Shown here one piece after another: positions 41,329 to 57,835 of a stretch of DNA of 64,000 nucleotides. Each line of letters opens with the position of its first letter. Position 1 is the first letter of the stretch. The DNA lies in contig CAVYAN010000048.1 in the NCBI GenBank assembly GCA_963766075.1, positions 32,001-96,000 of the forward strand. Direction: 5' to 3'. Origin of the DNA: an uncultured cyanobacterium. GTDB taxonomy: Bacteria; Cyanobacteriota; Cyanobacteriia; Leptolyngbyales; Leptolyngbyaceae. Both the position numbers and the translations under genes were made by a program. The notes under the pieces were generated by a model. It was not told the DNA's origin. It saw nothing but the letters and a program-made list of their open reading frames with translations, and searched no databases.

Positions 41329-41934
41329 ATGGACAGAAAGACTCGGGCGATTTTTCGCAGAAGGGAGGTCATTTTTGAAACCTTCACCGTCCCCGTGGTG
41401 GGCGATTTTGTCGTTTTTACCGACGATGTGACCCACCGGATTTGTCACGTCTGGCCTGATTCTGTCCAGCCAGCCGAGGGAGGGAAATTTTACCTCTCAG
41501 CGCGGGGAGTTATGGAGTTTGAGGGAGCGCTGGGCGATCGCACCAGCAGGCAACATCTCCGGCTCCTGCCCAAGCGCTGGAAAGGGGTGGCGTGGATCCA
41601 CCGTGAGGGCGTGTTTGGAAGCAAGGAAGCTTCTGGGCAAGTGTTTTGTCGCGTTTGGCAAAGTAGTTTGGCTTCACAACTAAGGAGGGAGAAAGTAATG
41701 CCGTATAAGACGGAGGGCGTTAATTACGTCACGCTCTGGCACGATGGGTTTGCCCGCGTATGGCACATCCGAAGATGTGTGACTTCAGGCAAAGGGGGCT
41801 GCGCTTGGTGCGGTTGCACTAGGAAGCATGGCGGTTTGTTCCAATATGGAACACTTTCAGAGAGCTATGGGGCAAGCCCCAATTGGGAGACAAAAAGCTT
41901 TTGTTCAAAAGGCTGTAGGAGTAGCCACGCATGA
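41329..41934 (+). CDS. Hypothetical protein with C-terminal Cys motifs
   Basis: Likely start MDRKTR; CAWC...FCSKGC. Confidence 0.5.
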   Translation: MDRKTRAIFRRREVIFETFTVPVVGDFVVFTDDVTHRICHVWPDSVQPAEGGKFYLSARGVMEFEGALGDRTSRQHLRLLPKRWKGVAWIHREGVFGSKEASGQVFCRVWQSSLASQLRREKVMPYKTEGVNYVTLWHDGFARVWHIRRCVTSGKGGCAWCGCTRKHGGLFQYGTLSESYGASPNWETKSFCSKGCRSSHA

Positions 41935-43415
41935 GCAGTATGAAAAACATAGACCGATCGACTATTTACCGGCGTCGTCAAGCCTTCTTTGCCCAATACG
42001 ATGCGCTGTGTGCGGAAAACGTGGAAACAGGCTCCGGCCTCGAAAAGCATGAGATTTTGAGCCTGTTGATGGTGAAAAAGGGCGAGGGCTTTGACCTTGC
42101 TCACATAGCGGAAAACACGGGCCTGAGTGTACAACAAGTAGAAGCATTGGGAGAGGCTACTGACTGCCTGGATGTGTACATTCAGACGCTACGTCCCCTG
42201 CCTTCAGTGCAGGGGGTTTCGTCCTTGCCAGTGGGGCTCCGGATGTTCATTGCAACGGACCCTCTGCTCATGGCGGCGCACATCGACGAATTGATTGTGG
42301 ATAACTGTGCTGTCTTGGAGCAGCTTGCTCGAAATATAAGGCTCTCCAAGGCGCATATCGACACACTTTTATCTTTCCAGGATGTTCATGTTTTGCGTGT
42401 TCTGGCAGAGCATCCGAACCTCACGGCGAGCCAAATTAATGAGCTAATCGACGATGGGGATGAAGAGCTACTAGAAATAGTGGCTAGGCATCCAAATTTA
42501 ACGAATCAAAACATTAACAAACTTCTGGAACTGGAGGATCTTCGTGTTTTGTGGGCTTTGGCAGAGCATCCAAGCCTCACGACAGAACCCTATAGCTATA
42601 GCCACATCGATTGGCTTATCGATGTGGAGGATGAGGAGCTACTAAAAATAGTGGCTAAGCATCCGAGCCTTACGCCGCGACTCCTCAGTCGGCTTATCGA
42701 TGATGAGGATATGGACTTGCTGGAGATAGTGGCTAGGCATCCGAACTTAACGACTGAGAACATTGACGAAATCCTGAAGCTTCACGATGACATTATCGTC
42801 TTGAGGATTCTGGCAGCGCATCCGAACCTCACGGCAGCGCACATCAATCAACTCATCGACGGCGGGGATGAAGAGCTACTAGAAATAGTGGCGAAGCGTT
42901 CGGACCTCACAGAGGCTCACATAGATCGCATCCTCAAGGCTGGGTCCGTAAATGCCCGCTACGCTCTAATTAGAAACCCGAACCTCACACAAAAGCACAT
43001 GGATCGCCTTTTGGAGGATGAAGATTACGGCGTCGCAACTGGCATGGGCGGGCATTGTGCGGCAGCTCTCGTGGCAAAAAACTCGAAAAAAGGAGAATCT
43101 TCTATGTCTAAGAAAGTCTGTACTGGGCTGGACGGCAACGAATATGTTTTCGATCAAGACAGATCGCAGCAGTGGCCGGAAGATACCGTCTTTGACGGAA
43201 ACAGCCACGTCTCCTGCGCGACGGGCTCTCAGTGGACCCATGAGGGTCTGTATCTGACGGCGGGTGGGAGATGGATCAAGGAGTCATGGGGCTCTAGCGG
43301 AGAGGGGAGCAGTTTCAATGAGATTACCGCCAAAGACGCGGTAATTTGGTTTGTCAAAAACAATGCCGAAATTCCCGATGAATTGCAGGCGGCGCTCAAA
43401 GAGGTAGAGATTTAA
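41931..43415 (+). CDS. Leucine-rich-variant/HEAT-like repeat protein fused to an unrelated C-terminal domain
   Basis: About nine ~24-aa repeats (VA-x-HPNLT-x3-I-x2-LI-x-D); internal RBS+ATG at 43104. Confidence 0.75.
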   Translation: MSSMKNIDRSTIYRRRQAFFAQYDALCAENVETGSGLEKHEILSLLMVKKGEGFDLAHIAENTGLSVQQVEALGEATDCLDVYIQTLRPLPSVQGVSSLPVGLRMFIATDPLLMAAHIDELIVDNCAVLEQLARNIRLSKAHIDTLLSFQDVHVLRVLAEHPNLTASQINELIDDGDEELLEIVARHPNLTNQNINKLLELEDLRVLWALAEHPSLTTEPYSYSHIDWLIDVEDEELLKIVAKHPSLTPRLLSRLIDDEDMDLLEIVARHPNLTTENIDEILKLHDDIIVLRILAAHPNLTAAHINQLIDGGDEELLEIVAKRSDLTEAHIDRILKAGSVNARYALIRNPNLTQKHMDRLLEDEDYGVATGMGGHCAAALVAKNSKKGESSMSKKVCTGLDGNEYVFDQDRSQQWPEDTVFDGNSHVSCATGSQWTHEGLYLTAGGRWIKESWGSSGEGSSFNEITAKDAVIWFVKNNAEIPDELQAALKEVEI

Positions 43416-43606
43416 TGGAGGTTTATATCGAAGTCCGCTGGGGCGAAAAGTGCAATAGCACTAGATGCTGGATGCGGTGCTACTACGCGATCACATCTTT
43501 AGAAACTCGCATGGATGTGGTTCAGCCGTGGAGCGATTCAAGGCGGGCAGCGATCGCCCTGGCGAAAGACCTCAATTACACGGTCGTTAAAAAGCCTCGG
43601 CGGTGA
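43415..43606 (+). CDS. Hypothetical protein
   Basis: TAATG coupling. Confidence 0.45.
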   Translation: MEVYIEVRWGEKCNSTRCWMRCYYAITSLETRMDVVQPWSDSRRAAIALAKDLNYTVVKKPRR

Positions 43607-43727
43607 CAGATTTGCTGTCGTCAATGACAGATTAGTGTCACCAGTGACAGATTCGCTGTCGTCAATAACGAATTAGCGTCATCAGTGACAGATTCGCTGT
43701 CGTTCAGTGACAGTAATTTGTCACCAA
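43603..43727. repeat. Three 41-bp tandem units of paired TGACAG...TGTC palindromic boxes
   Basis: GTGACAGATTYGCTGTCGT at 43603, 43644 and 43685. Confidence 0.8.
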
Positions 43728-43743: not shown

Positions 43744-44049
43744 ATGGGTTTCAATAAACACGATCTGACCGACAAAATTAGCTGCATGAACCAGCAGTTA
43801 AAGGAAGCAGGGCACGACATCCGCTTTGTTTCCAGCGGGGAAAACGGGCGGCAAGTTGTGAACGCCTGGTCAGTGACGATTGACGGAGACGAATTCAGCA
43901 CAATTCAGTACCAAGTCTGCTGCGGTTCGCCGCGTGAGTGCTCTGAGAAGGCATGGGCCAAGATGCACCAGCTTTTGCATGAGCATTACAAGGATTTGTA
44001 TGAAAAGTTTGTTCACAAAAAAGGAGGACACAATGTCCAGATTCACTGA
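43744..44049 (+). CDS. Hypothetical protein, triplicated family copy 1
   Basis: F-x3-DL-x3-I-x2-N-x4-AG-x-D-x-RF motif. Confidence 0.65.
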   Translation: MGFNKHDLTDKISCMNQQLKEAGHDIRFVSSGENGRQVVNAWSVTIDGDEFSTIQYQVCCGSPRECSEKAWAKMHQLLHEHYKDLYEKFVHKKGGHNVQIH

Positions 44050-44404
44050 AAAAGACTTGCTTGAAGAAATCGGGCGGATAAATGCAGAATTTGAGAAGGC
44101 GGGGCATGACACCCGCTTTATTGTCAGACCTGGATATGGACGCCAGTACATCTACACCCAGTCAATAAAAAGTGTTGAATCTGGCTCCACTGCTCATGGC
44201 CCTACAATTTGCTCTGGGACGCCAAGCGAGTGTTCCGCTGTGGCCTGGTGGAGGATGCACGCCATCCTGCACGATCACTACAAAGAGTTGTATGAGAAAA
44301 CCTACAGCATGTTGCAACAAAAAGCTGCTGAAGCTACGCAGTACAAACACTACAAAGCTCTGTATGAGCAGCTCGCCCAAAGTCAGGGGGGAAACGATGC
44401 TTAG
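44033..44404 (+). CDS. Hypothetical protein, triplicated family copy 2
   Basis: Start MSRFTEKDL after AGGAGG. Confidence 0.7.
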   Translation: MSRFTEKDLLEEIGRINAEFEKAGHDTRFIVRPGYGRQYIYTQSIKSVESGSTAHGPTICSGTPSECSAVAWWRMHAILHDHYKELYEKTYSMLQQKAAEATQYKHYKALYEQLAQSQGGNDA

Positions 44405-44756
44405 GTTCACTAAAAAAGACTTAGCCGAAGAGGTCAAGCAGATAAATGCAGAATTTGAGAAGGCGGGGTGTGATGCTCGCTTTGTTCTTCGTCCTGCATA
44501 CGGACGACAGTACGTCTATGTCCAGTCAGTGAAAAGTGTTGAATCTGGCTCCACTAGTCAGGGCGAGAAAATCAGCGATGGGACACCACGCCAGTGTTCT
44601 GATGTCATGTGGCCGAAATATCTTCAGCTCTTGCGTCACCATTACAAAGAGCTGTACGACAAAACTTATGCGGAGCTGGTGGTATACAAAAATCGGTGTG
44701 GGGAAATCGAAGGAGAGCTAGCACAGTTAAGGCAAAAGCAAGGTGAGAAATCATGA
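44397..44756 (+). CDS. Hypothetical protein, triplicated family copy 3
   Basis: Start MLRFTKKDL; DNA-level similarity to copy 2. Confidence 0.7.
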   Translation: MLRFTKKDLAEEVKQINAEFEKAGCDARFVLRPAYGRQYVYVQSVKSVESGSTSQGEKISDGTPRQCSDVMWPKYLQLLRHHYKELYDKTYAELVVYKNRCGEIEGELAQLRQKQGEKS

Positions 44757-48501: not shown

Positions 48502-48865
48502 ATGATTAGCGAAGCCTTTCAATACAAAAGCCTTGGCCATGTCAAAGTGGTCGAAAATGTAAAAAATGACCGCACGGGAAATCCGATCGTCCTAGTTTTT
48601 GTGGGACAAACAGAGGATTGTTTTTATCAGGAAGTTGTTGAGGGGGGGTGTTATCCGAGCGGGCGTAGAGGTTTACGGAACCTTTTACGCTTCCTACGAG
48701 CCGAGCGAGGGGAGGCGAAGCTGGGTTACGGAACATCGCTCCATGGACAGCGCCCTAGCCGCCCTGGAGGAAACCCTGGAGCTTATAAGGAGGCTAAAGA
48801 GCAGTAGCCCCTTTGGCCCGCCGCCTCTTCGGCCATGGCTCGCGCCTCAGTCTTTGGGAATTTAA
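48502..48865 (+). pseudogene. Gene frameshifted at a G7 tract; paralog of 53965..54300
   Basis: The N-half (frame of 48502) and C-half (frame of 48599) each align by eye to the intact 111-aa protein; the switch is at G7 48642-48648. Confidence 0.8.
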
Positions 48866-48882: not shown

Positions 48883-49125
48883 ATGATGAACTTTAGTGTT
48901 TTGTCAAGCGGTTTGGCCGCTCCCGTCAGGAAAAGTCTACCAGGAAGTCCAGAGGACGCCAAAGAACGGCGATTGATGGCCATCCTGGCGATGCAAAAAA
49001 CTGAGCGTAGGAAGCTGGGTTGTAGTTGTCCCCTTTTCCTGGCCAACGGTCGCTCCGAGAACCCCAGGATCGACATTGGCGATGATCGAGACTGCGAGTA
49101 CTGCCACCCTATCAGGAGTTTCTGA
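48883..49125 (+). CDS. Small Cys-containing protein coupled to cas8e
   Basis: RBS AAGGAGG; CSC...CEYC; its TGA overlaps the cas8e ATG. Confidence 0.55.
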   Translation: MMNFSVLSSGLAAPVRKSLPGSPEDAKERRLMAILAMQKTERRKLGCSCPLFLANGRSENPRIDIGDDRDCEYCHPIRSF

Positions 49126-49943
49126 TGAATTTACTAACCGATCCGTGGGTTCCGGTCCTGGAGCAAAACAATCGCCCTGGCGAGGCATCCTTGCTCCGAC
49201 TGCTGACCGATGGCAGCATTTTGGATATAACTGGCCAGCCGATGACCAGGCTGGCCGTCCTGCGGCTGCTCATGGCCATGAAAGCATGGCGCGATCGCGG
49301 TGGTGATGACTTCCAGGAACAATCCTTCAGCCTGAGTACGTTCTTGCAAACTGCGTTGCCCGCAGAATGCAAGGGGCTACGCCCTGAGCTGATTATCCAA
49401 ATGTCCGATAAAAACGGCGTGGCATGGTCCCCGACGCCGCGCAAGCCATCACCACCGGAGATTTTCGCTCAGGCTGTCGTCACGGCGTATTTCTGCGATC
49501 GCGGCGGACTGAAGGCCCGAGTCCCCGGCTTATCCATTTCGGGCCAAACACCGTTTCATGTAGGCACCCAAGTCCGGATGGTGTCTGGGGAAACGGTCTT
49601 GGAGCGCCTCGACAATAATCCTGTTGATTGGGAGCCCGACGACTACCAGCCCCCGTGGGTGGGCGGCGTGAAATTTCCGGAAGGTAGCAAGCCGCGCCAT
49701 GACTTAGAGCTGCTGCTCTGGCCATGGCGCAGAGTCTGCATTACGGACAATGGCGTTGTTGTCGCACCAGGGGCGGTCATGTCCACCGAGGTGAAAGACC
49801 CTTGGGTGCTGGGGAAAGCGCTGGTGCGTCATTATCGTGACAAACCTGAGGAGGGATTTGAAATCACAAATCTGGCCTTGCAGCAGGCGTCACCCTTGGC
49901 CTGCTGGATCTCTCGGCCCTGCAAACAAAGTGTCGTATTCTGA
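49125..49943 (+). CDS. cas8e: Type I-E large subunit Cas8e/Cse1, shortened (272 aa)
   Basis: N-terminal NLLTDPWVPV is characteristic of Cse1; RLL, W-x-WRRV and DPW motifs; heads the cas6/7/5 operon. Confidence 0.75.
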   Translation: MNLLTDPWVPVLEQNNRPGEASLLRLLTDGSILDITGQPMTRLAVLRLLMAMKAWRDRGGDDFQEQSFSLSTFLQTALPAECKGLRPELIIQMSDKNGVAWSPTPRKPSPPEIFAQAVVTAYFCDRGGLKARVPGLSISGQTPFHVGTQVRMVSGETVLERLDNNPVDWEPDDYQPPWVGGVKFPEGSKPRHDLELLLWPWRRVCITDNGVVVAPGAVMSTEVKDPWVLGKALVRHYRDKPEEGFEITNLALQQASPLACWISRPCKQSVVF

Positions 49944-49948
49944 AAACT

Positions 49949-50497
49949 ATGGAAATGGAAGCAGTTTTAACCAAAATCAGAGGAAGCCTAGGGCACAAAG
50001 CCGTCATGGCCGGTTTTGAACATTCCGAGTCCCCCACAGCCAGGGCGGATTGGAACATTTTGTTCCGGCATGACGGCGAAAATACGTTGATTCAGTCAAC
50101 CGTTGCGCCGACTTACCGCCGTCCATTTGAACAAAAACCCCTCCCTCTCGATCCGATCGCGGGCGAGTCCTACTTTTTCAGGGTGGCTATTAACGCTATC
50201 TCCATTGAAAAGACCGAATCAGGACGGTCCAAGGAGGTGCGTTGTGACCCTGAAATTTGGCTGCAATTCCAGCAGGCAAAGCGCGGCTTTGCTATAGAAA
50301 AACTCCTTTCTGCGGTTAGCGCTCCGATTGTCGAAACATCTGGAGGCCGCAGGTTTTTTGTCAACCGTTTTCACATAGAAGGCGTTTTGATTGCTGAAAA
50401 TGCCCAACTTTTGGGCAAAACGCTTCTCGAAGGACTGGGAAAATCCAGATCCTACGGATGCGGATTGCTCTCCATCTTGCCCATTAATCAACCATAG
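49949..50497 (+). CDS. cas6e: Type I-E crRNA endoribonuclease Cas6e/Cse3
   Basis: N-terminal His (GHKAVM), ILFR, LIQS-x3-P, FRV-x2-N, G-loop GLGKSRSYGCGLL. Confidence 0.9.
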   Translation: MEMEAVLTKIRGSLGHKAVMAGFEHSESPTARADWNILFRHDGENTLIQSTVAPTYRRPFEQKPLPLDPIAGESYFFRVAINAISIEKTESGRSKEVRCDPEIWLQFQQAKRGFAIEKLLSAVSAPIVETSGGRRFFVNRFHIEGVLIAENAQLLGKTLLEGLGKSRSYGCGLLSILPINQP

Positions 50498-50505
50498 GAG
50501 TTTTC

Positions 50506-51810
50506 ATGTTCGTTGCCGTTCACGCAATTCAATCCCTGCCTCCCTCCAACCCCAACCGAGGGAAAGATGGCGAGCCCAAGCACTCCCCGCTCGGTGGGGT
50601 GGTCAGAGCGTGCCTGTCCTCCCAGTCCCAGAAACATGCGGCGCGGCAGTGGTACCACGCTGCTTTTGAATCGGATCCTTCTGGATTTGCCTACCGCTCC
50701 AGAGAGTGGCATGGGCAGCTTGCAGCCCAACTTGGATGGGCTCCCGATCACCAAAAAGACAACATAGCGAGGTTAATCCTCGCGCTGCTCAACAGCAGTC
50801 CGGCGAATTTATTCGCTAATGCGATCTCCATGCAGAACCTAATTTTTATGGGCCTTGCAGAAATGCAGGCGATCGCCATTATGTCCCAGTCATGCGCAGA
50901 AGCGCTCGGATTTCTGTCCGACGATTTTGAGGCTTACAAAGTCTGGGCTGCAAACCAAAAAACGATCGTAGAAGAGCCTGAAGAACCCGTAGAAGAGCCT
51001 GAAGAACCCGTAGAAGATGCAGGGAAAAAGAAGGCTAAATCTAAAAAAGCGGAATTTGGGCGGCACCCCACTCCTGCCAAGTTGAGGCCCATAATTCAAT
51101 GCATCAGCAGTGCCATGGGCAGCACTGTCCCTGGCGATATAGCCCTGTTTGGGCGGATGATGGCGTCCTCCGGATTTGGCAGCACGGACGGCACGGTAGA
51201 AGTCGCCGCCGCGATCGGGGTGGGAGCCCTTGGTCGGTCTAGGTCGGATAAGGGGTGGGTGCCCGGTCAAGTTGACTTCTTCTCAGCAGCAGACGATCTC
51301 GCTCTTCCCAACACGTCTGGGGCGGCGATGCTGGGAGAAACACTGTTCGCAGCCCCAACGCTGTACCGATACGCCAACGTGAACTGCCATGAGGCTGCAA
51401 ACCTCATAGGTAATCGAGAGGCTGCTGCCGAAGCGATCAGGCGGTTCGTCAACGGGTTTCTGCGCGCCCTCCCCACGGGGCACTCTCGGCAGTTTGCCCA
51501 TGGGGTTCTGCCGGAGTTTGTCCTGCTGGAAGTTTTGAAGACGGCCCCTTACGGCTACAGCCAAGCATTCCTATCACCTATCAATGGCCCTGACACTTCG
51601 GTGCCTACCGAGTTCGGAGGACTGTCGGTCAGCCAGCAGGCGGTGAACGCGCTCATGCGCCACAGGATGAACTCTATCGAGTTGTTTGGCGGGGCTCCTG
51701 AGAGCTTCGCGATAACGGCTCTATCAACCCATTGGGGGACGGAAGAGGTTCTACCCCTAGACAAAGCGATCGCCTCCGTCCTGGCTCACCCTGGCGTGCT
51801 GGAGAAATAA
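50506..51810 (+). CDS. cas7e: Type I-E backbone subunit Cas7e/Cse4
   Basis: HAIQSLPPSNPNR-x3-G-x-PK, GG-x2-RA-x2-SSQS-x-K, DIALFGRM, DFFSAADD, LYRYANVN, LPTG. Confidence 0.93.
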   Translation: MFVAVHAIQSLPPSNPNRGKDGEPKHSPLGGVVRACLSSQSQKHAARQWYHAAFESDPSGFAYRSREWHGQLAAQLGWAPDHQKDNIARLILALLNSSPANLFANAISMQNLIFMGLAEMQAIAIMSQSCAEALGFLSDDFEAYKVWAANQKTIVEEPEEPVEEPEEPVEDAGKKKAKSKKAEFGRHPTPAKLRPIIQCISSAMGSTVPGDIALFGRMMASSGFGSTDGTVEVAAAIGVGALGRSRSDKGWVPGQVDFFSAADDLALPNTSGAAMLGETLFAAPTLYRYANVNCHEAANLIGNREAAAEAIRRFVNGFLRALPTGHSRQFAHGVLPEFVLLEVLKTAPYGYSQAFLSPINGPDTSVPTEFGGLSVSQQAVNALMRHRMNSIELFGGAPESFAITALSTHWGTEEVLPLDKAIASVLAHPGVLEK

Positions 51811-51811
51811 T

Positions 51812-52258
51812 ATGCCCTTCACAATGACCCTTTCCGGGCCAATGGGAGGCTTCGGAGATACACCCAGATTGGTGCATCGCTTTGTTCAGGAGGCTCCCCC
51901 GCGATCGGCCATCATCGGCCTAATTGCCAACGCCTATGGCCTGAGCCGCGACGATGATTTTGGGTTCCTAGATTCCCTGAGATTCAGAATCATTGAACAA
52001 AGCTCGGGTGAGGCTGTAGTTGATTTTCAGACGGTGCGGAATGCCGTCACCGTTGATGGTAAGCCGGGGCGGAATGCCATCACGTATCGGCACTATTTGC
52101 CAGACTACAAGCTGGTGTTGGAAGTTGATGGCCCGGAGGAATTGCTCAAGCAAGTGTTCCTCAATCTGAAATATCCCCACCGACCGCTTTACATTGGACG
52201 GCGCTGTAATGTTTTAGATCGGCCTGTCGTTGCTGGGGATTTTCCAGGGATAGGATAA
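51812..52258 (+). CDS. cas5e: Type I-E Cas5e/CasD, shortened (148 aa)
   Basis: LSGPM-x2-FG, P-x-RSAIIGLIANAYG-x2-R, DFQTV, TYRHYL-x-D, P-x3-LYIGRR. Confidence 0.9.
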   Translation: MPFTMTLSGPMGGFGDTPRLVHRFVQEAPPRSAIIGLIANAYGLSRDDDFGFLDSLRFRIIEQSSGEAVVDFQTVRNAVTVDGKPGRNAITYRHYLPDYKLVLEVDGPEELLKQVFLNLKYPHRPLYIGRRCNVLDRPVVAGDFPGIG

Positions 52259-52261
52259 GTT

Positions 52262-53458
52262 CTCCAAAAGTTGGAGGTTGGTCTGCATAGCATTGACTCA
52301 GCACGCTGACTCAGCACGCTCCACTCCAATCTTTGGAGGTCGATCTGGACAAGAGAGGCACTAAATCAAGCTATTGGGAAGGCGGCAGATTACTGCACTC
52401 CAATCTTTGGAGGTCGATCTGCGCTACAGCTTATCCCTCGGCCACGCCGCCCATCTGCCCCGCCCTGCGGGGGTTGCTCTAGAATCTTGTTTCAAAATGT
52501 TTTGTGCCCCATCTACTGGGGGTTAATCGTACAAAAATTTTGATTAGATTGGGCACCGTTGCCCTATCTAGCGGGGGTTACTCGTAAAAGCTCTACGAGG
52601 TTCAAGATGCTTTGTGCCCGCTTTGCGGGGTTCATCATGCAAAGATCGCGACCTGCCCTGAACTGTGCATTGCCCCAGCCTGGGGGGTTTTTAGGGCAAC
52701 GATTTGATCGCCCCACCCCGTGGGGGTTTGTCGCAAGTAAACCGTGGACCGTGCGTTGCCCCAAACTGTGGGGGTTTGTCGCAAGCTTACCTTAGCGCTC
52801 AGGGTTGCCCAATACCCCACCTTGTGGGGGTCCGTCCATCAGCGCGATGGAAGCCTGGGAGCGGTAAATAATTGCCCCGCACAGTGGGGGTTTATTGTAC
52901 AAAGTCTCAGAGGTTCAAAATGTTTTACGCCCGCTCTGCGGGGTTTTTCAAGTAGTTCATGCGTGCTTTCACCCCACACCATGGGGGTTTATCGATGAAC
53001 TCTAGTCATGCGTGCTTCCGCCCCATCTAATGGGGGTTTCTCACCGAGAACTTGGGAGAAGCCATATTTCCCCACCCGTGGGGGTTTATCCACCAGTCCG
53101 AACTTTTCATCCGCGATCGCCACTCCACGCCGTGGAGGTTTGTCACTCTCTGCGCTTACTGCGATAGTGAACATTTCCCCACCTGCGGGGGTCGATCTTC
53201 TCCAGAGGGCAGCATCGCAAATAGGCTGGATTCACACCCTCTCTGAGGGGTTTTTCGTTCAACTTAACCAGCTCGAAATGGTATTGCTTGCTCCATGGCG
53301 TGGAGGTTTGTCAACAAAGTTGAGTGCGTCCCCACTTGTGGGGGTTCTTCTCTGGCCTTGGCCGTCTTTTTTCAGCCCCATGTTATGGGGGTTCTTCTCT
53401 GGTCAATAATCGACCCTCTCCACGCCGATCTGCACAGCCCCACCTATGGGGGTTAATC
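52262..53458 (+). CRISPR. Degenerate CRISPR-like array, block 1 (23 hairpin repeats)
   Basis: Units of a 5-7-bp stem (for example CCCCAC-N3-GTGGGG) plus a GTnnnTC tail start at 52262, 52324, 52398, 52458, 52507, 52562, 52617, 52673, 52711, 52759, 52815, 52875, 52930, 52972, 53021, 53070, 53123, 53177, 53237, 53291, 53330, 53376 and 53438. The array begins 3 nt after the cas5e stop. Confidence 0.85.
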
Positions 53459-53475
53459 CTTATCAGGAGAACTAC

Positions 53476-53748
53476 ATGGATAAAAAGCTGCTTATTTGTG
53501 TTTGTGAAAAATTCATCGACCTTGACACGGTTAGAGCACTGTTACGGGGTGATAGCGTTCGAGATTCTTCCCTTGATCTCCTGTTTTTGCAGGAAGATTG
53601 CTTAGGCGGTAAATTTCGATTGCGAGGCGCAACAGAAGATTCAAAAACTTTTGTAGACTGCGAGTTCTCGTATCTTGAAACGAATGAAGAAGTTTATCTT
53701 GAAATAACCGCACTGAGAACCAGTCCGATCCTCGACTCCCTGCCCTGA
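53476..53748 (+). CDS. Hypothetical protein (90 aa) embedded between array repeats
   Basis: RBS AGGAG then ATG 53476 (MDKKLLIC...). Confidence 0.7.
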   Translation: MDKKLLICVCEKFIDLDTVRALLRGDSVRDSSLDLLFLQEDCLGGKFRLRGATEDSKTFVDCEFSYLETNEEVYLEITALRTSPILDSLP

Positions 53749-53756
53749 GAGCACAG

Positions 53757-53948
53757 CCCCACCTGTGGGGGTTTATCCATGATAGGGCTGCACATTCCTG
53801 CGGATACTTGCCCGCAATCGCGGGGTCAGTCCCGTTCCACAGGGAGGCACAATTTTTGTAGCCTGGTCACCCCGCCTTGCGGGGGTCGATCGCTTCCAGG
53901 CTAGTAGATACACTCTCTCTGAGTCTCCACTCCGTGGAGGTTTTATTC
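53757..53948 (+). CRISPR. Degenerate array, block 2 (4 repeats)
   Basis: Hairpin units at 53757, 53811, 53870 and 53925. Confidence 0.8.
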
Positions 53949-53964
53949 AAAACATAGGAGTCTT

Positions 53965-54300
53965 ATGCTTTACCAAGATTACGACTACGAAGCTGTTGGC
54001 GGCGTAAAAATCGCCAAAAACGCAGCAAACATACAAACGGGAAACAAAATAATGCTGGCCTTCCTAGGGCCAGATGAAGATTGCTACTACATTGAAGCCC
54101 TCCCCGATGAGGCTGGGATAATCCGCGCTGGCCGGGAAGCGGACGGCGATTACTACGCAAGCTTCGAGCCAGTGGTTGGGGAGAGCTGCTGTGTGAGGGA
54201 GCACTCCTGCATTGATGATGCCCTATCTGAACTGGAGGCTATTTTGCTCACCTTGGATCCGCCGCCGCAATGGCGATCGCCGCAAACGCTGGCGCTGTAA
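53965..54300 (+). CDS. Hypothetical protein (intact paralog of 48502..48865)
   Basis: RBS ATAGGAG; shared TGN-x-I-x-L-x-F-x-G-x2-EDC, IRAG-x-E, YAS-x-EP, EH, PQ-x-L motifs. Confidence 0.75.
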   Translation: MLYQDYDYEAVGGVKIAKNAANIQTGNKIMLAFLGPDEDCYYIEALPDEAGIIRAGREADGDYYASFEPVVGESCCVREHSCIDDALSELEAILLTLDPPPQWRSPQTLAL

Positions 54301-54322
54301 CTCGTGAAAATCCTAATGACCT

Positions 54323-54730
54323 ATGAAAATCCTGAACCTAGAAACGGGCGCAACAGCAACTATTGACACCGAAAACATCCCTGAAGAAAATCGGTTAATT
54401 CCCGAGAATCCGTTAGACCTTTTGGCTTTGACTGCTTTTTGCATTCAGAGCAACTGTAATGGGGTGGTTTGGACGACGAACAGGCAAGAAGATGGCAGCA
54501 TAAGCGTCATGCTTGACACCTTGGTTTTTGGATATGACGGCTTCGCCAAAACTACCGTAGGAATTCAACCTGCGGTCTTCGACCCGATGACTTTTATAGA
54601 TCAGGAATCAGTTCATCTCACGTTCTGGGTTTCGTTAACCCACTGCAAACTTAAGCCAGAGGCGTTCTGGCTCACAAGCCTGCGCGGATTTCAGCAGACT
54701 AACATTGTGGGTTATCCCATCGTTTTTTAG
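54323..54730 (+). CDS. Hypothetical protein
   Basis: 135-aa ORF ending 12 nt before block 3. Confidence 0.65.
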   Translation: MKILNLETGATATIDTENIPEENRLIPENPLDLLALTAFCIQSNCNGVVWTTNRQEDGSISVMLDTLVFGYDGFAKTTVGIQPAVFDPMTFIDQESVHLTFWVSLTHCKLKPEAFWLTSLRGFQQTNIVGYPIVF

Positions 54731-54742
54731 CCCCATTTCCCG

Positions 54743-54991
54743 CCCCACTCAGTGGGGGTTTATCTCTAATGTTGACTGGAAATAAAAAGTGCTTCGCCCC
54801 ACTCAGTGGGGGTTTGTCGGTAATCATCAGCGCCATAGTTCTTGCGCATCAAGCTCCACATCGTGGAGGTGCCTCGGCAAAAGCGCTAGCATGTCGGGCT
54901 GCCAGGTTGAATGCTCCACTCTGTGGAGGTGCTTCGGCAAAAGCACTGGTCGGTTGGCGATAGCTAGCGCTCCACGCCGTGGAGGTCTTTC
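54743..54991 (+). CRISPR. Degenerate array, block 3 (5 repeats)
   Basis: Hairpin units at 54743, 54797, 54854, 54914 and 54970. Confidence 0.82.
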
Positions 54992-55037
54992 GACAACAGA
55001 AATTCAGACCGATACTTTATTCTTGGAGACTGAAATT

Positions 55038-55586
55038 ATGAAGCAACTAACATCCGTAACGCTCCCTTACGAGCAGTTTGCAGAGATCGCAAATTATGAA
55101 GTGGAGGGCTGCGTCGAGGCTGCCATTAGTCTGGGCTGTGCCGACTTCGCCAAGCGCGACATCCCAGACGGATCGGGCGCGTTCCCTGTCCACCTGAGCC
55201 TGAAAACACCAGAGGGTCGTTTTTTGGGATCGGGTGCGTATTGCGGATTCGTCCACGGCTTCGATCAGGACATTTTAGAACGGCTTTGGCAGGCTGCTGG
55301 GGTCACCCTGGATGAGGATACTCTGTACCAGTCCTGCTTTGATGTCAACATAGGCACTCATGAAGATAATCACGGCGCTGTCTGCGAGGACTGCCTGAGA
55401 GCGGGAGGAGGGGTCTATATCGAAGGATCGGAAGATACTCCGTGGGAGTCACTGAGCGAGCTTGATCGCCTCGGGCTTACTTTTCGCCGTTTGCTGCCAG
55501 AGAGCGATCGCGCAGTCTGTTGGTCATGTAGGCAAATGATTGACGAGTCAATCGCGTCTGCTGCGGAAAATTGTGCCGCTGAGTGA
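55038..55586 (+). CDS. Hypothetical protein with two CxxC motifs
   Basis: RBS GGAG, start MKQLTSV (the track's 54789 start runs through the array). Confidence 0.65.
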   Translation: MKQLTSVTLPYEQFAEIANYEVEGCVEAAISLGCADFAKRDIPDGSGAFPVHLSLKTPEGRFLGSGAYCGFVHGFDQDILERLWQAAGVTLDEDTLYQSCFDVNIGTHEDNHGAVCEDCLRAGGGVYIEGSEDTPWESLSELDRLGLTFRRLLPESDRAVCWSCRQMIDESIASAAENCAAE

Positions 55587-55679
55587 GCCTTGACCCCAAC
55601 CCAGTCGTGACAGTTCTGGAGTTAAAGAATCCCGGCAACGGGACTGGCAAAATTCATCAAAGCCAGTAAGGAGAACAAC

Positions 55680-55964
55680 GTGAACATCAAGTCTTGCGCG
55701 ATCGCCATCAATAGCGGAGAGGACGCCCACGCATCCATTCTGGCCATGTGTCAGCAGCTAGACATAGCCAATCTGCCTGAGCCTGAAGACAAAATGCGCC
55801 AACTGGCGTACACGGAAAGCGGACTAAGGGTCGCTTTGATGTTGAATCACCAATGGATTCAGGCTCGGGCGGAAAAACTGATTCAGCCTTGCTTCAATCG
55901 GATTGCTACTGAGGAGTTTGGCGTGGGTATGCGTCAAACTCGCGCAATGGTCGCACATGATTAA
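55680..55964 (+). CDS. Hypothetical protein
   Basis: RBS AAGGAG, GTG start. Confidence 0.6.
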   Translation: MNIKSCAIAINSGEDAHASILAMCQQLDIANLPEPEDKMRQLAYTESGLRVALMLNHQWIQARAEKLIQPCFNRIATEEFGVGMRQTRAMVAHD

Positions 55965-55987
55965 CCAGTGAACATAGGAGTTGAAAA

Positions 55988-57052
55988 GTGAAAATCAATC
56001 GCCCAGTTGGAGTACTACTGCCAATTCATGAAACGTATTACGGGGATATAAACCCTGGCGATCTAAACAGTTTCTTGGCTTGTGCCGGAGAAGCGTTGCG
56101 AACGTTCGGGTTCTCTCGGATCGAAACCTTAAACCCTGACACAGACCGAGAGCGGGAGCTGTGGGGCGTTGGCGAAATCTTGGTCCAGTCGGATGAGATT
56201 ACGAGCTGGGATGACGGCAAAGATGTGGGGATAACGGTTGATTGGCTTGACCTAATCGACGCCGATTCAGACGAAATATTGAAGGTTCTAGAATCCACAT
56301 GGATGAAGGAACCGGCGATCGTGGCGATGAACTATCTCGAAGAAGATGGCTACAAAGACCGTGGAAACTCCGAGTTTGGAGTAGTTCGCTCCTACAGGCA
56401 TCACAGTCAGGAATTTGTCCCAGGAATTCCCCTTTCTAGGTTTTTGAGCGAGGGATGGGTAAAAGAGCAGCCTAGCAGCAAGGCAAGCATCAGTGTAGCC
56501 CCTGGCGGGGGGATTCAAGTCCCGCGAGAACTTGACTTTGTTCGATGCTGGGAGCTTTTTGAACGCCAGTCGCTAGACAACCCTAGGTGTTTTGAGTATC
56601 GGCAGGTATGCCTCACTGAGGATTCTCGCTACAGAAAATGGGTAGAGCAGGGCTATCCTGCCTTTTCGGTAAACTTTTCCGACTCTCAGCGCCGTTTTGT
56701 CAACGAAGCAAAACTATCGGAAAGAGCGGCATTTGTTCACTCGATAGTAAGCCGCCCATCCGAATTCCAAAGGCTGGTATCGGAGTTTGGGCATACCCTT
56801 GCTGTCGGCCACTCAGTCTGGATCTGCACGGATGCAGAAGGCCGCGAGGGATTTTATATGTGGCGAACCGAAGGGGGCTGGCACGGGGCTCAATTCGGAG
56901 TGCAAGAGCTGAAAAGGCTTGGAGTGAGCGATCGCTTTGAAAAGCTGAGGGAAACTTTAAGTATCGAAACGAAAGGATTTCCTGTAGCCGGAGAGGGCGT
57001 TGGCAGATACGCCGATGTGGAATTCCTCAAATCTACGGGATGGTTTGAGTAG
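55988..57052 (+). CDS. Hypothetical protein (354 aa)
   Basis: RBS ATAGGAG, GTG start; ends 13 nt before block 4. Confidence 0.7.
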   Translation: MKINRPVGVLLPIHETYYGDINPGDLNSFLACAGEALRTFGFSRIETLNPDTDRERELWGVGEILVQSDEITSWDDGKDVGITVDWLDLIDADSDEILKVLESTWMKEPAIVAMNYLEEDGYKDRGNSEFGVVRSYRHHSQEFVPGIPLSRFLSEGWVKEQPSSKASISVAPGGGIQVPRELDFVRCWELFERQSLDNPRCFEYRQVCLTEDSRYRKWVEQGYPAFSVNFSDSQRRFVNEAKLSERAAFVHSIVSRPSEFQRLVSEFGHTLAVGHSVWICTDAEGREGFYMWRTEGGWHGAQFGVQELKRLGVSDRFEKLRETLSIETKGFPVAGEGVGRYADVEFLKSTGWFE

Positions 57053-57065
57053 TTGATCCTCAGCA

Positions 57066-57441
57066 CCCCACCTTGTGGGGGTTTGTCAAAGTTTATAAAC
57101 GGGCTGCGGTATTTATTGGCGACTTAAAGCCTTTGCCCCACGCCGTGGGGGTTTATCAACGGTCTGCGGCAGCCTTGTGACGTAAAGCCTTCGCCCTACA
57201 CTGTGTAGGGGTTTATCTTCGATCCAACTCTATTGGCTTAACGGCTCTCTTTGCCCCACGGTGTGGGGGTTTATCTTTGCTCCAACTCTACCAGCTTAAC
57301 GGCTCTCTTTGCCCCACGGTGTGGGGGTTTATCAAACGGTTCTATAGCCAAATCAACCCTCACCCCGCTCAGTGGGGGTCTATCTTTACGGCAGCAAACC
57401 CCCACCGGGCTTACATCACCCCACACTGTGGGGGTGCGATC
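57066..57441 (+). CRISPR. Degenerate array, block 4 (7 repeats)
   Basis: Hairpin units at 57066, 57136, 57194, 57254, 57312, 57363 and 57419; the most homogeneous block (CCCCACnnnGTGGGGGTTTATC). Confidence 0.88.
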
Positions 57442-57515
57442 GCATCGCGCTTGAAATGATTTACACCAAACATAGGAGGCTTATACCCGCCTTTCAGCAT
57501 TCAAATAAATGTCCC

Positions 57516-57835
57516 GCCGCGATCGCCACTGGTCGCGGCTTTTTTTATGGAGAAACCCCAAAATGCAAACCAAAATCACCAAATCTAAAGCCGCCGAAAT
57601 CGCCCAGAACCTGATAGAGGAAGGCGAGGAAAACACAGGAGTCTGTCTAGCCTGCGGAGAAGTCCATGAAGGGATTGAGCCCGATGCCCGCGAGTATAAA
57701 TGTGAAGCCTGCGGTCAACATAAAGTTTACGGATCAGAAGAAATTCTTCTAATGTTCGGACCTGCCAACTTCTAAAAACCACTGAATGCAGACTGCCGCG
57801 ATCGCCACTGATCGCGGCTTTTTTATGGAGAAAAC
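57516..57835 (+). repeat. Duplicated ~40-bp hairpin-polyT-RBS module
   Basis: GCCGCGATCGCCACTGRTCGCGGC-T6/7-ATGGAGAAA at 57516 and 57795. Confidence 0.8.
57563..57775 (+). CDS. Small zinc-finger protein
   Basis: G-x-CLACG...IEPDAR-x-Y-x-CEACG-x3-VYG. Confidence 0.7.
   Translation: MQTKITKSKAAEIAQNLIEEGEENTGVCLACGEVHEGIEPDAREYKCEACGQHKVYGSEEILLMFGPANF

Follow-up and report, generated by a model that had tools for sequence, protein, structure and literature searches.

The 64,000-nt window analysed here carries a phage-borne CRISPR-Cas locus of type I-E and of a new architectural variant, in which clusters of repeats occupy the junctions between genes. Normally, a CRISPR array contains no genes and is separate from the other transcripts of the locus, the mRNAs. 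In the present case, 39 degenerate Cas6e-type hairpins between 52262 and 57433 form four clusters (23, 4, 5 and 7 hairpins) separated by three blocks of one, two and three genes, and the cas genes, the repeat clusters and the embedded genes g1 to g6 all lie on the + strand (Table 1). As a whole, we consider it probable, with some reserve, that the repeats came to occupy existing gene junctions, that the locus is read as one transcript and cut by Cas6e, and that the embedded genes are ordinary accessory genes. No match to the repeat-gene architecture was found in the literature searched; most subscription papers lay outside its scope and a description may be in print.

Table 1. Features of the locus, with positions in the window
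Feature	Position	Strand	Basis
Frameshifted g2 paralog, upstream of cas8e, no surrounding hairpins	48502..48865	+	
Short cas8e, 272 aa	49125..49943	+	Pfam PF09481, E 1.9e-12
cas6e	49949..50497	+	Pfam; alignment of Cas6e proteins
cas7e, 434 aa	50506..51810	+	Pfam; distinct 22-sequence clade
cas5e, 148 aa	51812..52258	+	Pfam, NCBIfam
Repeat cluster 1, 23 degenerate hairpins at a period of 38-74 nt	52255..53459	+	
g1, 90-aa orphan, twin 28-mers either side	53476..53748	+	
Repeat cluster 2, 4 hairpins	53751..53947	+	
g2, 111 aa	53965..54300	+	
g3, 135-aa orphan	54323..54730	+	
Repeat cluster 3, 5 hairpins	54736..54992	+	
g4, 182 aa, Cys-rich	55038..55586	+	
g5, 94 aa	55680..55964	+	
g6, 354 aa	55988..57052	+	
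Repeat cluster 4, 7 hairpins	57059..57441	+	
Strong terminator-like hairpin with U-tract	57516..57546	+	

All four type I-E core genes, cas8e, cas7e, cas5e and cas6e, scored over the Pfam cut-off, and the NCBIfam cut-off was passed by cas5 only. The match of cas8e to the Cse1 profile is confined to the N-terminal ~50 aa, and the short form is also present at loci of the same Cas7 clade, as defined in a quick-version tree. In Cas6e, His16 is invariant in all seven aligned proteins and the Gly-rich loop is retained. With the Cascade systems of E. coli and T. fusca the locus shares the Cas8e, Cas6e, Cas7e and Cas5e families and a hairpin with an 8-nt handle, and its Cas7 fold matches that of Cascade Cas7. 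It differs from them in its short Cas8e, in being carried by a phage, in the genes between its clusters and in its repeats, which have a period of 38-74 nt and are about 57% alike on average (mean similarity 0.575, sd 0.10, over all 741 repeat pairs). A further difference is that no Cas11, Cas3 or Cas1 was found. A profile search for cas11 (Cse2, PF09485) gave no match in the home genome assembly, a search whose control matched in 1 of 14 and which a very divergent form could escape, and the operon leaves no room for the gene; Cas3 HD and Cas1 were not found in that assembly, which is 85% complete, and cas1 was also not found in four related virus records. No type I-E system of the host was found in the same assembly.

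The hairpin count comprises 35 found by a pattern rule and four added by eye. The same rule gave only scattered matches in the remainder of the 64 kb, 16 of them on the + strand, 10 on the opposite one, and a weight-matrix scan detected no second cluster on the 116-kb contig. Structure is retained while the repeat sequence decays: 190 of 195 Watson-Crick pairs are kept in the stems against a maximum of 173 for shuffled arms, a comparison in which the detection rule favours pairing, and compensatory changes include nine cases in which T-A replaces C-G at pair 2. The hairpins are accompanied by the 8-nt handle, whose G-G-T and T-C positions are invariant. Neighbouring repeats are more alike array-wide (0.619 versus 0.572, permutation p 0.0002), and a search of Rfam returned no match.

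The preliminary description had placed six genes inside the array, with every cluster starting 3-13 nt after a stop codon and the first three ending shortly before the next ribosome-binding site, and this geometry was borne out. Six ORFs were found from 53476 to 57052; the distances from stop codon to first hairpin base are 3, 8, 12 and 13 nt for the four clusters, the first being that from the cas5 stop to a hairpin that follows without a leader; and the distances from the predicted cut to the next ATG are 24, 25 and 53 nt for clusters 1 to 3, with 16-17 nt from handle to start codon in the case of g1 and g2. Gene packing also predicts such tight abutment: of 23 ordinary gaps between genes in the vicinity, 18 span no more than 20 nt (one start coordinate in the gap list is misplaced).

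That description had also regarded the genes as giant spacers. Sister-phage DNA was not found among the viral contigs searched, and one metagenome scan for it returned distant clade members only. The whole phage clade mixes repeats and genes. In one relative (L013), cas7 is even split from cas5 by eight repeats; the last cut would lie 24 nt ahead of the start codon of cas5, and this region contains no promoter-like site on the + strand. In three other relatives (L093-L095), repeats lie at the cas6-cas7 junction. Clusters are also located just past the stop codons of unrelated operons. Among the 36 clusters of the relatives, 17 begin 11 nt or less from a stop, a count in which kin appear repeatedly and which corresponds to about 7 distinct sites, and 19 do not abut a stop. 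Because repeats sit in gene junctions across the family, cas operon included, the embedded genes are probably not giant spacers.

Transcription of the cas genes, repeats and embedded genes together, with cleavage by Cas6e, is plausible from the single strand, the intact hairpins and the Cas6e with its conserved His, and the idea is strengthened by the relatives that carry repeats within the cas operon itself. In sister phages, for which the evidence rests on protein clusters, cas5 reads into the first repeat. Promoter-like sites in the locus were not above chance in a weak scan (4 versus 6.6); cluster 1 contains a single 9/12 site with TG, at 53140-53168. The strongest terminator-like hairpin comes after the last repeat and is likely the 3′ end of the cas-repeat-gene unit. 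We propose that cas genes, clusters and the six genes would be read as one + strand transcript ending near 57546, and that the phage Cas6e would cut at every hairpin base, giving about 35 crRNA-like RNAs and three mRNA pieces of about 319, 818 and 2096 nt, each carrying an 8-nt handle before the ribosome-binding site and, at the 3′ end, a hairpin to which Cas6e may remain attached. Most of the interleaving would have arisen by the spread of repeat clusters into tight gene gaps, an order of events inferred from distant relatives, with g1 as a possible exception that may have arrived with a repeat duplication. Cutting of the mRNA is probably tolerated or mildly useful and not the purpose of the system, and the phage Cascade most likely binds and silences DNA, since the system is without a nuclease.

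Comparison of the 35 spacers with the home genome assembly by a Hamming scan gave nothing convincingly above shuffled controls, and a seed scan on the own contig, which short matches would escape, gave a longest seed of 9.8 versus 9.8 in shuffles. In BLAST searches, the array gave only weak matches, in 15 of 89 family genomes, none among plasmids, and, among phages, only a match due to chance that falls within g6, seen in two records. Spacer 11 partly matched secY of two genomes, a candidate that was discarded as the secY of the host itself shows no such match. The 101 spacers of the relatives likewise gave nothing convincing outside arrays among the sequences compared. The proposed silencing would resemble that by CreA/CreR and Cracr, described in the available parts of the sources as mini-arrays of 1-3 spacers with promoter targets (10.1101/2023.03.03.530964, 10.1101/2024.10.29.618823), with which the locus shares degenerate repeats, short spacers and Cascade as the proposed repressor; it differs from what those parts describe in that no seed match above shuffle was observed.

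A purposeful version of the same processing is possible, though we hold it only tentatively: Cas6 hairpins would be selected to cut polycistronic mRNA, setting stability or timing gene by gene and coupling expression to Cas6e or Cascade. That repeats recur 6-7 nt past stop codons at about seven separate places, several of them in non-cas operons, would be expected under such selection, as would the hairpin structure kept despite sequence decay and the cut-to-ATG distance of 24-25 nt common to g1, g2 and cas5 of L013. In addition, the periods of 37-39 nt in clusters of the relatives leave spacers of about 9 nt, which are too short for normal guides. However, the close packing of genes imposes this geometry as well, and the predicted accessibility of the ribosome sites barely changes upon cleavage (0.42 to 0.46, 0.40 to 0.41 and 0.46 to 0.39), so no gain in ribosome access is predicted. 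Moreover, a single hairpin would suffice, yet clusters hold 2-23, and on the contig studied here the hairpins occupy a single stretch. Its widest form, which we likewise regard as a speculative option, is that a cyanobacterial phage family has put CRISPR repeats to use as RNA punctuation throughout the genome, its own Cas6e cutting polycistronic mRNAs, the cas operon included, at clusters past stops, controlling stability gene by gene and releasing guide or decoy RNAs. As the nuclease-like gene of the clade is gone in this phage, processing and silencing would then be all that is left.

In engineered operons, Csy4/Cas6f hairpins placed between cistrons cut the transcript into gene-sized mRNAs. 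Those operons are synthetic; here the arrangement is natural and the processing is predicted. To our knowledge, processing of mRNA by Cas6 is known only from such synthetic biology and, in part, from the acrIC5-racrIC1 RNA; if Cas6e cuts the transcripts of these phages, they would provide a naturally occurring example of mRNA processing by Cas6. In the available part of its description, acrIC5-racrIC1 is a bicistronic phage RNA with a repeat mimic 11 nt behind the gene; other Racrs are processed by Cas6, and Racrs are solitary, without cas genes, and decoy the host system (PMC10651486). The locus resembles it in having a repeat behind a gene on what would be the same phage mRNA, and differs from Racrs, as far as that part describes them, in that 39 non-solitary repeats follow four cas genes of the phage's own Cascade.

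Separate transcription, with a promoter for each block, hairpins acting mainly as terminators or 3′ stabilisers, and genes and clusters as mere neighbours, appears unlikely. A hairpin with a U-rich handle is terminator-like, and terminator-like hairpins numbered 30 versus 11 in shuffles, many of the 30 being the repeats themselves. Inspection by eye also suggested promoter-like sequence before some embedded genes of the relatives, and a promoter and terminator of their own for the genes between clusters in L093-L095. Nevertheless, the 16-17 nt between handle and ATG of g1 and g2 are too short to hold a promoter clear of the repeats, and no extended -10 or -35/-10 match, a rare pattern of low power, was found directly upstream of any gene block. 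The invariant handle positions suit recognition by Cas6e better than termination.

The proposal that recombination takes place at the repeats, in a cassette array like that of an integron or of PeSL elements, with genes captured as giant spacers, is quite improbable and is not supported here. In its favour are the near-identical 28-mers around the 90-aa gene, and these are real: the copies at 53432 and 53751 agree in 26 of 28 bases, are mutual best matches and rank third of the 741 pairs (0.93). A sister phage has Val in its upstream ORF in place of Met here, which would fit a still closer match to the downstream copy. The flanks of blocks 2 and 3, on the other hand, are ordinary (0.62 each), so twin flanks occur at one block only. 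In line with the proposal, the sister phages contain no homolog of g2 or g3 at or above 90%. Against it, g1 (94-100% identical), g4 (at least 90%), g5 (93-94%) and g6 persist in them, whereas of eight examined neighbours outside the array just two have a homolog at 90%. Under the proposal, homologous loci would gain or lose genes exactly between repeats; by a strict pattern, none of eight gene-sized indels in the distant relatives L093-L095 has its breakpoint at a CRISPR hairpin, and several fall within leader or terminator sequence that is shared and not of the CRISPR type. The negative searches for cas1, in the 85% complete assembly and in four related virus records, also argue against it. 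PeSL cassettes of T4-type phages are, in the available parts of the sources, promoter-stem-loop elements in which repeated hairpins lie between small accessory genes (PMC2839356, PMC4122927). The present locus shares repeated hairpins separating small accessory genes, and differs from that description in that its hairpins are of the Cas6e type and the indels of the relatives do not break at them.

That the embedded proteins are effectors replacing Cas11, Cas3 or the missing part of Cas8 is very improbable: although searches of the home genome assembly detected neither Cse2/Cas11 nor Cas3 HD, cas8e is short, the phage is without the nuclease-like gene of the clade and four of the genes are retained in sisters, g1 to g6 have no family match in Pfam, PHROG, NCBIfam or PADLOC and no homolog at the other cas7 loci compared (170 loci at E 0.01, and 15 loci ORF by ORF), g2 has a paralog with the same leader outside the array, g6 is modular, and the accessory gene common to the clade encodes a different protein. 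We infer instead that the six are ordinary accessory phage genes, neither Cascade parts nor mobile cassettes. The product of g6 joins three modules of ~110 aa, which are also found as free-standing small proteins. Its N-module, with a predicted fold of pLDDT 84, gave no structural match: the best Z was 4.1, and viral comparisons yielded nothing at E 0.001. It was found in none of 400 other genomes of the class; the Atlas gave no usable match for g6 and scores only under 0.9 for g4.

The locus points to a compact clade of phage I-E systems that seems to have received little description so far, in which Cas8e is very short and relatives have a nuclease-like partner. Relatives of the Cas7 clade carry, before cas6, a gene of 214-238 aa with a D..E.K-type motif, which a profile search did not detect on this contig or in the home genome assembly. 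Variant I-E3 is defined, in the available part of its description, by a PD-(D/E)xK nuclease fused to Cas11 (PMC12669027). The gene of the relatives is the point of likeness and its absence from this phage the difference, and a link between the Cas7 clade and I-E3 is only a lead. The nuclease-like gene of the clade gave a weak match to SfsA (E 0.004).

Downstream of cas5 the array has 39 hairpins, grouped into four clusters (23, 4, 5 and 7); 35 of their periods are short (38-74 nt, median 56), and the three long ones (319, 818 and 2096 nt) contain six genes, g1 to g6, so that their embedding within the array, reported in the preliminary description, is borne out. The distance from stop codon to cluster start is 3, 8, 12 and 13 nt, as the previously given range of 3-13 nt implied; that from the predicted cut to the following ATG is 24, 25 and 53 nt. 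The 28-mers flanking g1 are indeed near-identical, with 26 of 28 bases shared (third among 741 repeat pairs); those flanking blocks 2 and 3 are of average similarity, and the repeats are mutually about 57% alike. In the stems, 190 of 195 Watson-Crick pairs are kept against a maximum of 173 with shuffled arms, a count that is partly circular because hairpin detection itself required pairing, and compensatory swaps are present. These paired stems, together with a Cas6e that retains the Gly-rich loop and one His shared by all 7 aligned sequences, argue that the hairpins are probably still Cas6e substrates.

Positions of the features discussed, in the window and in loci of relatives
Feature	Locus	Positions
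Block 1 (g1)	window	53476-53748
Block 2 (g2; g3)	window	53965-54300; 54323-54730
Block 3 (g4; g5; g6)	window	55038-55586; 55680-55964; 55988-57052
Four cas genes (272-aa Cas8e, Cas6e, Cas7e, Cas5e)	window	49125-52258
Cas7	window	50506-51810
Frameshifted g2 paralog	window	48502-48865
g2 leader copy	window	57465-57490
Terminator-like hairpin with U-tract	window	57516-57546
Its near-identical copy	window	57795-57825
Helical-repeat protein	window	41931-43415
Three repeats, 41-nt period	window	43593-43703
Three tandem paralogous genes	window	43744-44756
cas7-cas5 repeat array	L013	11191-11717
PD-(D/E)xK-like gene	L013	8604-9320
PD-(D/E)xK-like gene	L016	1777-2460
PD-(D/E)xK-like gene	L094	8603-9247
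PD-(D/E)xK-like gene	L051	669-1364
Intergenic region with small-gene turnover	L094	12390-12710
Two opposite arrays	L120	3697-6907
Short-spacer cluster	L171	6609-6860
Short-spacer cluster	L172	6653-6860
Short-spacer cluster	L174	6496-6690
Short-spacer cluster	L175	7803-7915

In a quick tree, the window Cas7 falls within a 22-sequence clade (SH-aLRT 99) separate from chromosomal cyanobacterial Cas7e, and repeats at gene junctions are common in the clade's loci. In one relative, L013, eight repeats separate cas7 from cas5, the last predicted cut being 24 nt ahead of the cas5 ATG, and two more precede cas6. Because cas7 directly adjoins cas5 in the window and in the related locus L016, we infer that the repeats entered this junction and not the reverse, which turns around, at least as a family rule, the idea of genes as giant spacers. 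In L093-L095, repeats occur at the cas6/cas7 junction, after cas5 and at several sites distant from cas genes. Over 14 loci, 17 of 36 clusters begin no more than 11 nt past a stop, about seven distinct sites with kin counted repeatedly. Repeat-associated variation among relatives is in the number of spacers. In the window, spacers 35/36 and 6/12 resemble each other above the shuffled maximum, which suggests array growth by duplication and not acquisition; no convincing target of the window's spacers was found in the source genome, its contig, family genomes, plasmids or phages, nor any of the relatives' spacers outside arrays among the sequences compared.

We consider it probable that the phage Cas6e processes one transcript, yielding crRNA-like RNAs and three mRNA pieces. 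This transcript would start upstream of cas8e and end at the first terminator-like hairpin, and the Cascade, which has no nuclease, would probably silence its targets through binding. The L013 cas5, barring a hidden promoter, requires RNA that crosses eight Cas6 sites, and no plus-strand promoter-like site was found in the repeats before it; this supports the co-transcript proposed earlier. That the gene blocks are instead separate transcription units is unlikely. Two results caution against reading more into this layout: of 23 ordinary gaps between genes near the array, 18 are 20 nt or shorter, so that any intergenic insertion necessarily abuts a stop and a ribosome-binding site, and folding predictions gave no improvement of ribosome access by cutting. 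Selection of Cas6e cutting as mRNA control is doubtful, these readings and those below being partly overlapping.

It is still less likely that the repeats serve cassette traffic as recombination sites, as had been suggested. Pairwise BLAST of L093-L095 gave nine divergence points; with one 72-nt in-gene indel set aside, none of the other eight has a CRISPR hairpin (strict pattern) 40 nt or less from a breakpoint. The one indel with a degenerate hairpin nearby is enclosed by a direct repeat of non-CRISPR type, and shared leader or terminator sequence delimits several of the indels. Intergenic regions of these loci have small genes gained, lost or swapped between common leader and terminator motifs, a cassette system that does not depend on the CRISPR repeats. 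Only g1, with its twin flanks, fits entry alongside repeat duplication; that one repeat was copied across to the other side of the gene explains the flanks equally well.

The proposal that the embedded proteins are effectors or replacement subunits is not supported, and replacement of subunits is very improbable. None of the six matched Pfam (above cut-off), PHROGs, NCBIfam or PADLOC, and no homolog appeared among 170 loci, many of them short, or ORF by ORF in 15. Outside the array, upstream of cas8e, lies a frameshifted paralog of g2 that shares its leader and lacks hairpins, and g6 fuses three modules (about 1-107, 108-223 and 236-354), the first with no recognisable fold, which exist as separate proteins, mostly of 80-130 aa. 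The sister phages, represented solely by protein clusters from contigs 119,846, 117,082 and 8,623 bp long, have a Cas7 85% identical to that of the window and carry g1, g4 and g5 at at least 90% identity and g6 at 72-74%. No 90% member was found there for g2 and g3, nor for 6 of 8 neighbours looked up outside the array, two further ones being absent from the collection. Most likely, g1 to g6 are ordinary accessory genes. Since a longer-called sister g1 includes the same upstream spacer and repeat, that stretch of the array is fixed.

Searches of the 85%-complete genome found neither Cse2/Cas11 nor Cas1 nor a Cas3 HD domain. The wider clade shares, just before cas6, a conserved gene whose 214-238 aa product has a PD-(D/E)xK-like motif, a candidate Cas3 replacement and possibly an I-E3 Cas11 fusion. 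It recalls variant I-E3 (PMC12669027) and was not found on the window's contig. Together with I-E3, the acrIC5-racrIC1 bicistronic RNA (PMC10651486) and regulatory mini-arrays are the nearest published cases; in the available parts of their descriptions, none interleaves blocks of several genes with repeat clusters belonging to the phage itself. Compared with ordinary Cas7e, the clade's Cas7 has an extra 40-70 aa; it contains a long helix (117-155) and then a low-complexity loop of acidic and basic residues (156-180), and might offset the short Cas8e or absent Cas11.

The terminase, portal and head morphogenesis protein encoded in the window mark it, by gene content, as phage DNA, on a contig of 116,265 bp. 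Genes judged by eye as parA/parB-like and integrase-like suggest a temperate or plasmid-like phage. A cyanobacterial host is indicated by the GCGATCGC motif, which we take to be HIP1 of cyanobacteria, and by the cyanobacterial relatives. From roughly 31 kb to the window end, nearly every gene is small, uncharacterised and encoded on the plus strand; the small-gene region upstream of the array holds three tandem paralogs, a protein containing LRV-like short helical repeats, and a three-repeat stretch. Past the last repeat, a copy of the g2 leader with ATA replacing ATG may be what is left of a lost gene start. The terminator-like hairpin and its copy form a second repeated element, PeSL-like in that each stands directly ahead of the ribosome-binding site of one of the two small genes that follow. 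Repeat clusters of L171, L172, L174 and L175 have a 37-39 nt period with spacers of about 9 nt, too short as normal guides, and several begin 6 nt past the stop of a non-cas gene. In L120, each opposite array is preceded by the same leader-like sequence, and cas5 runs opposite to cas8 and cas7.
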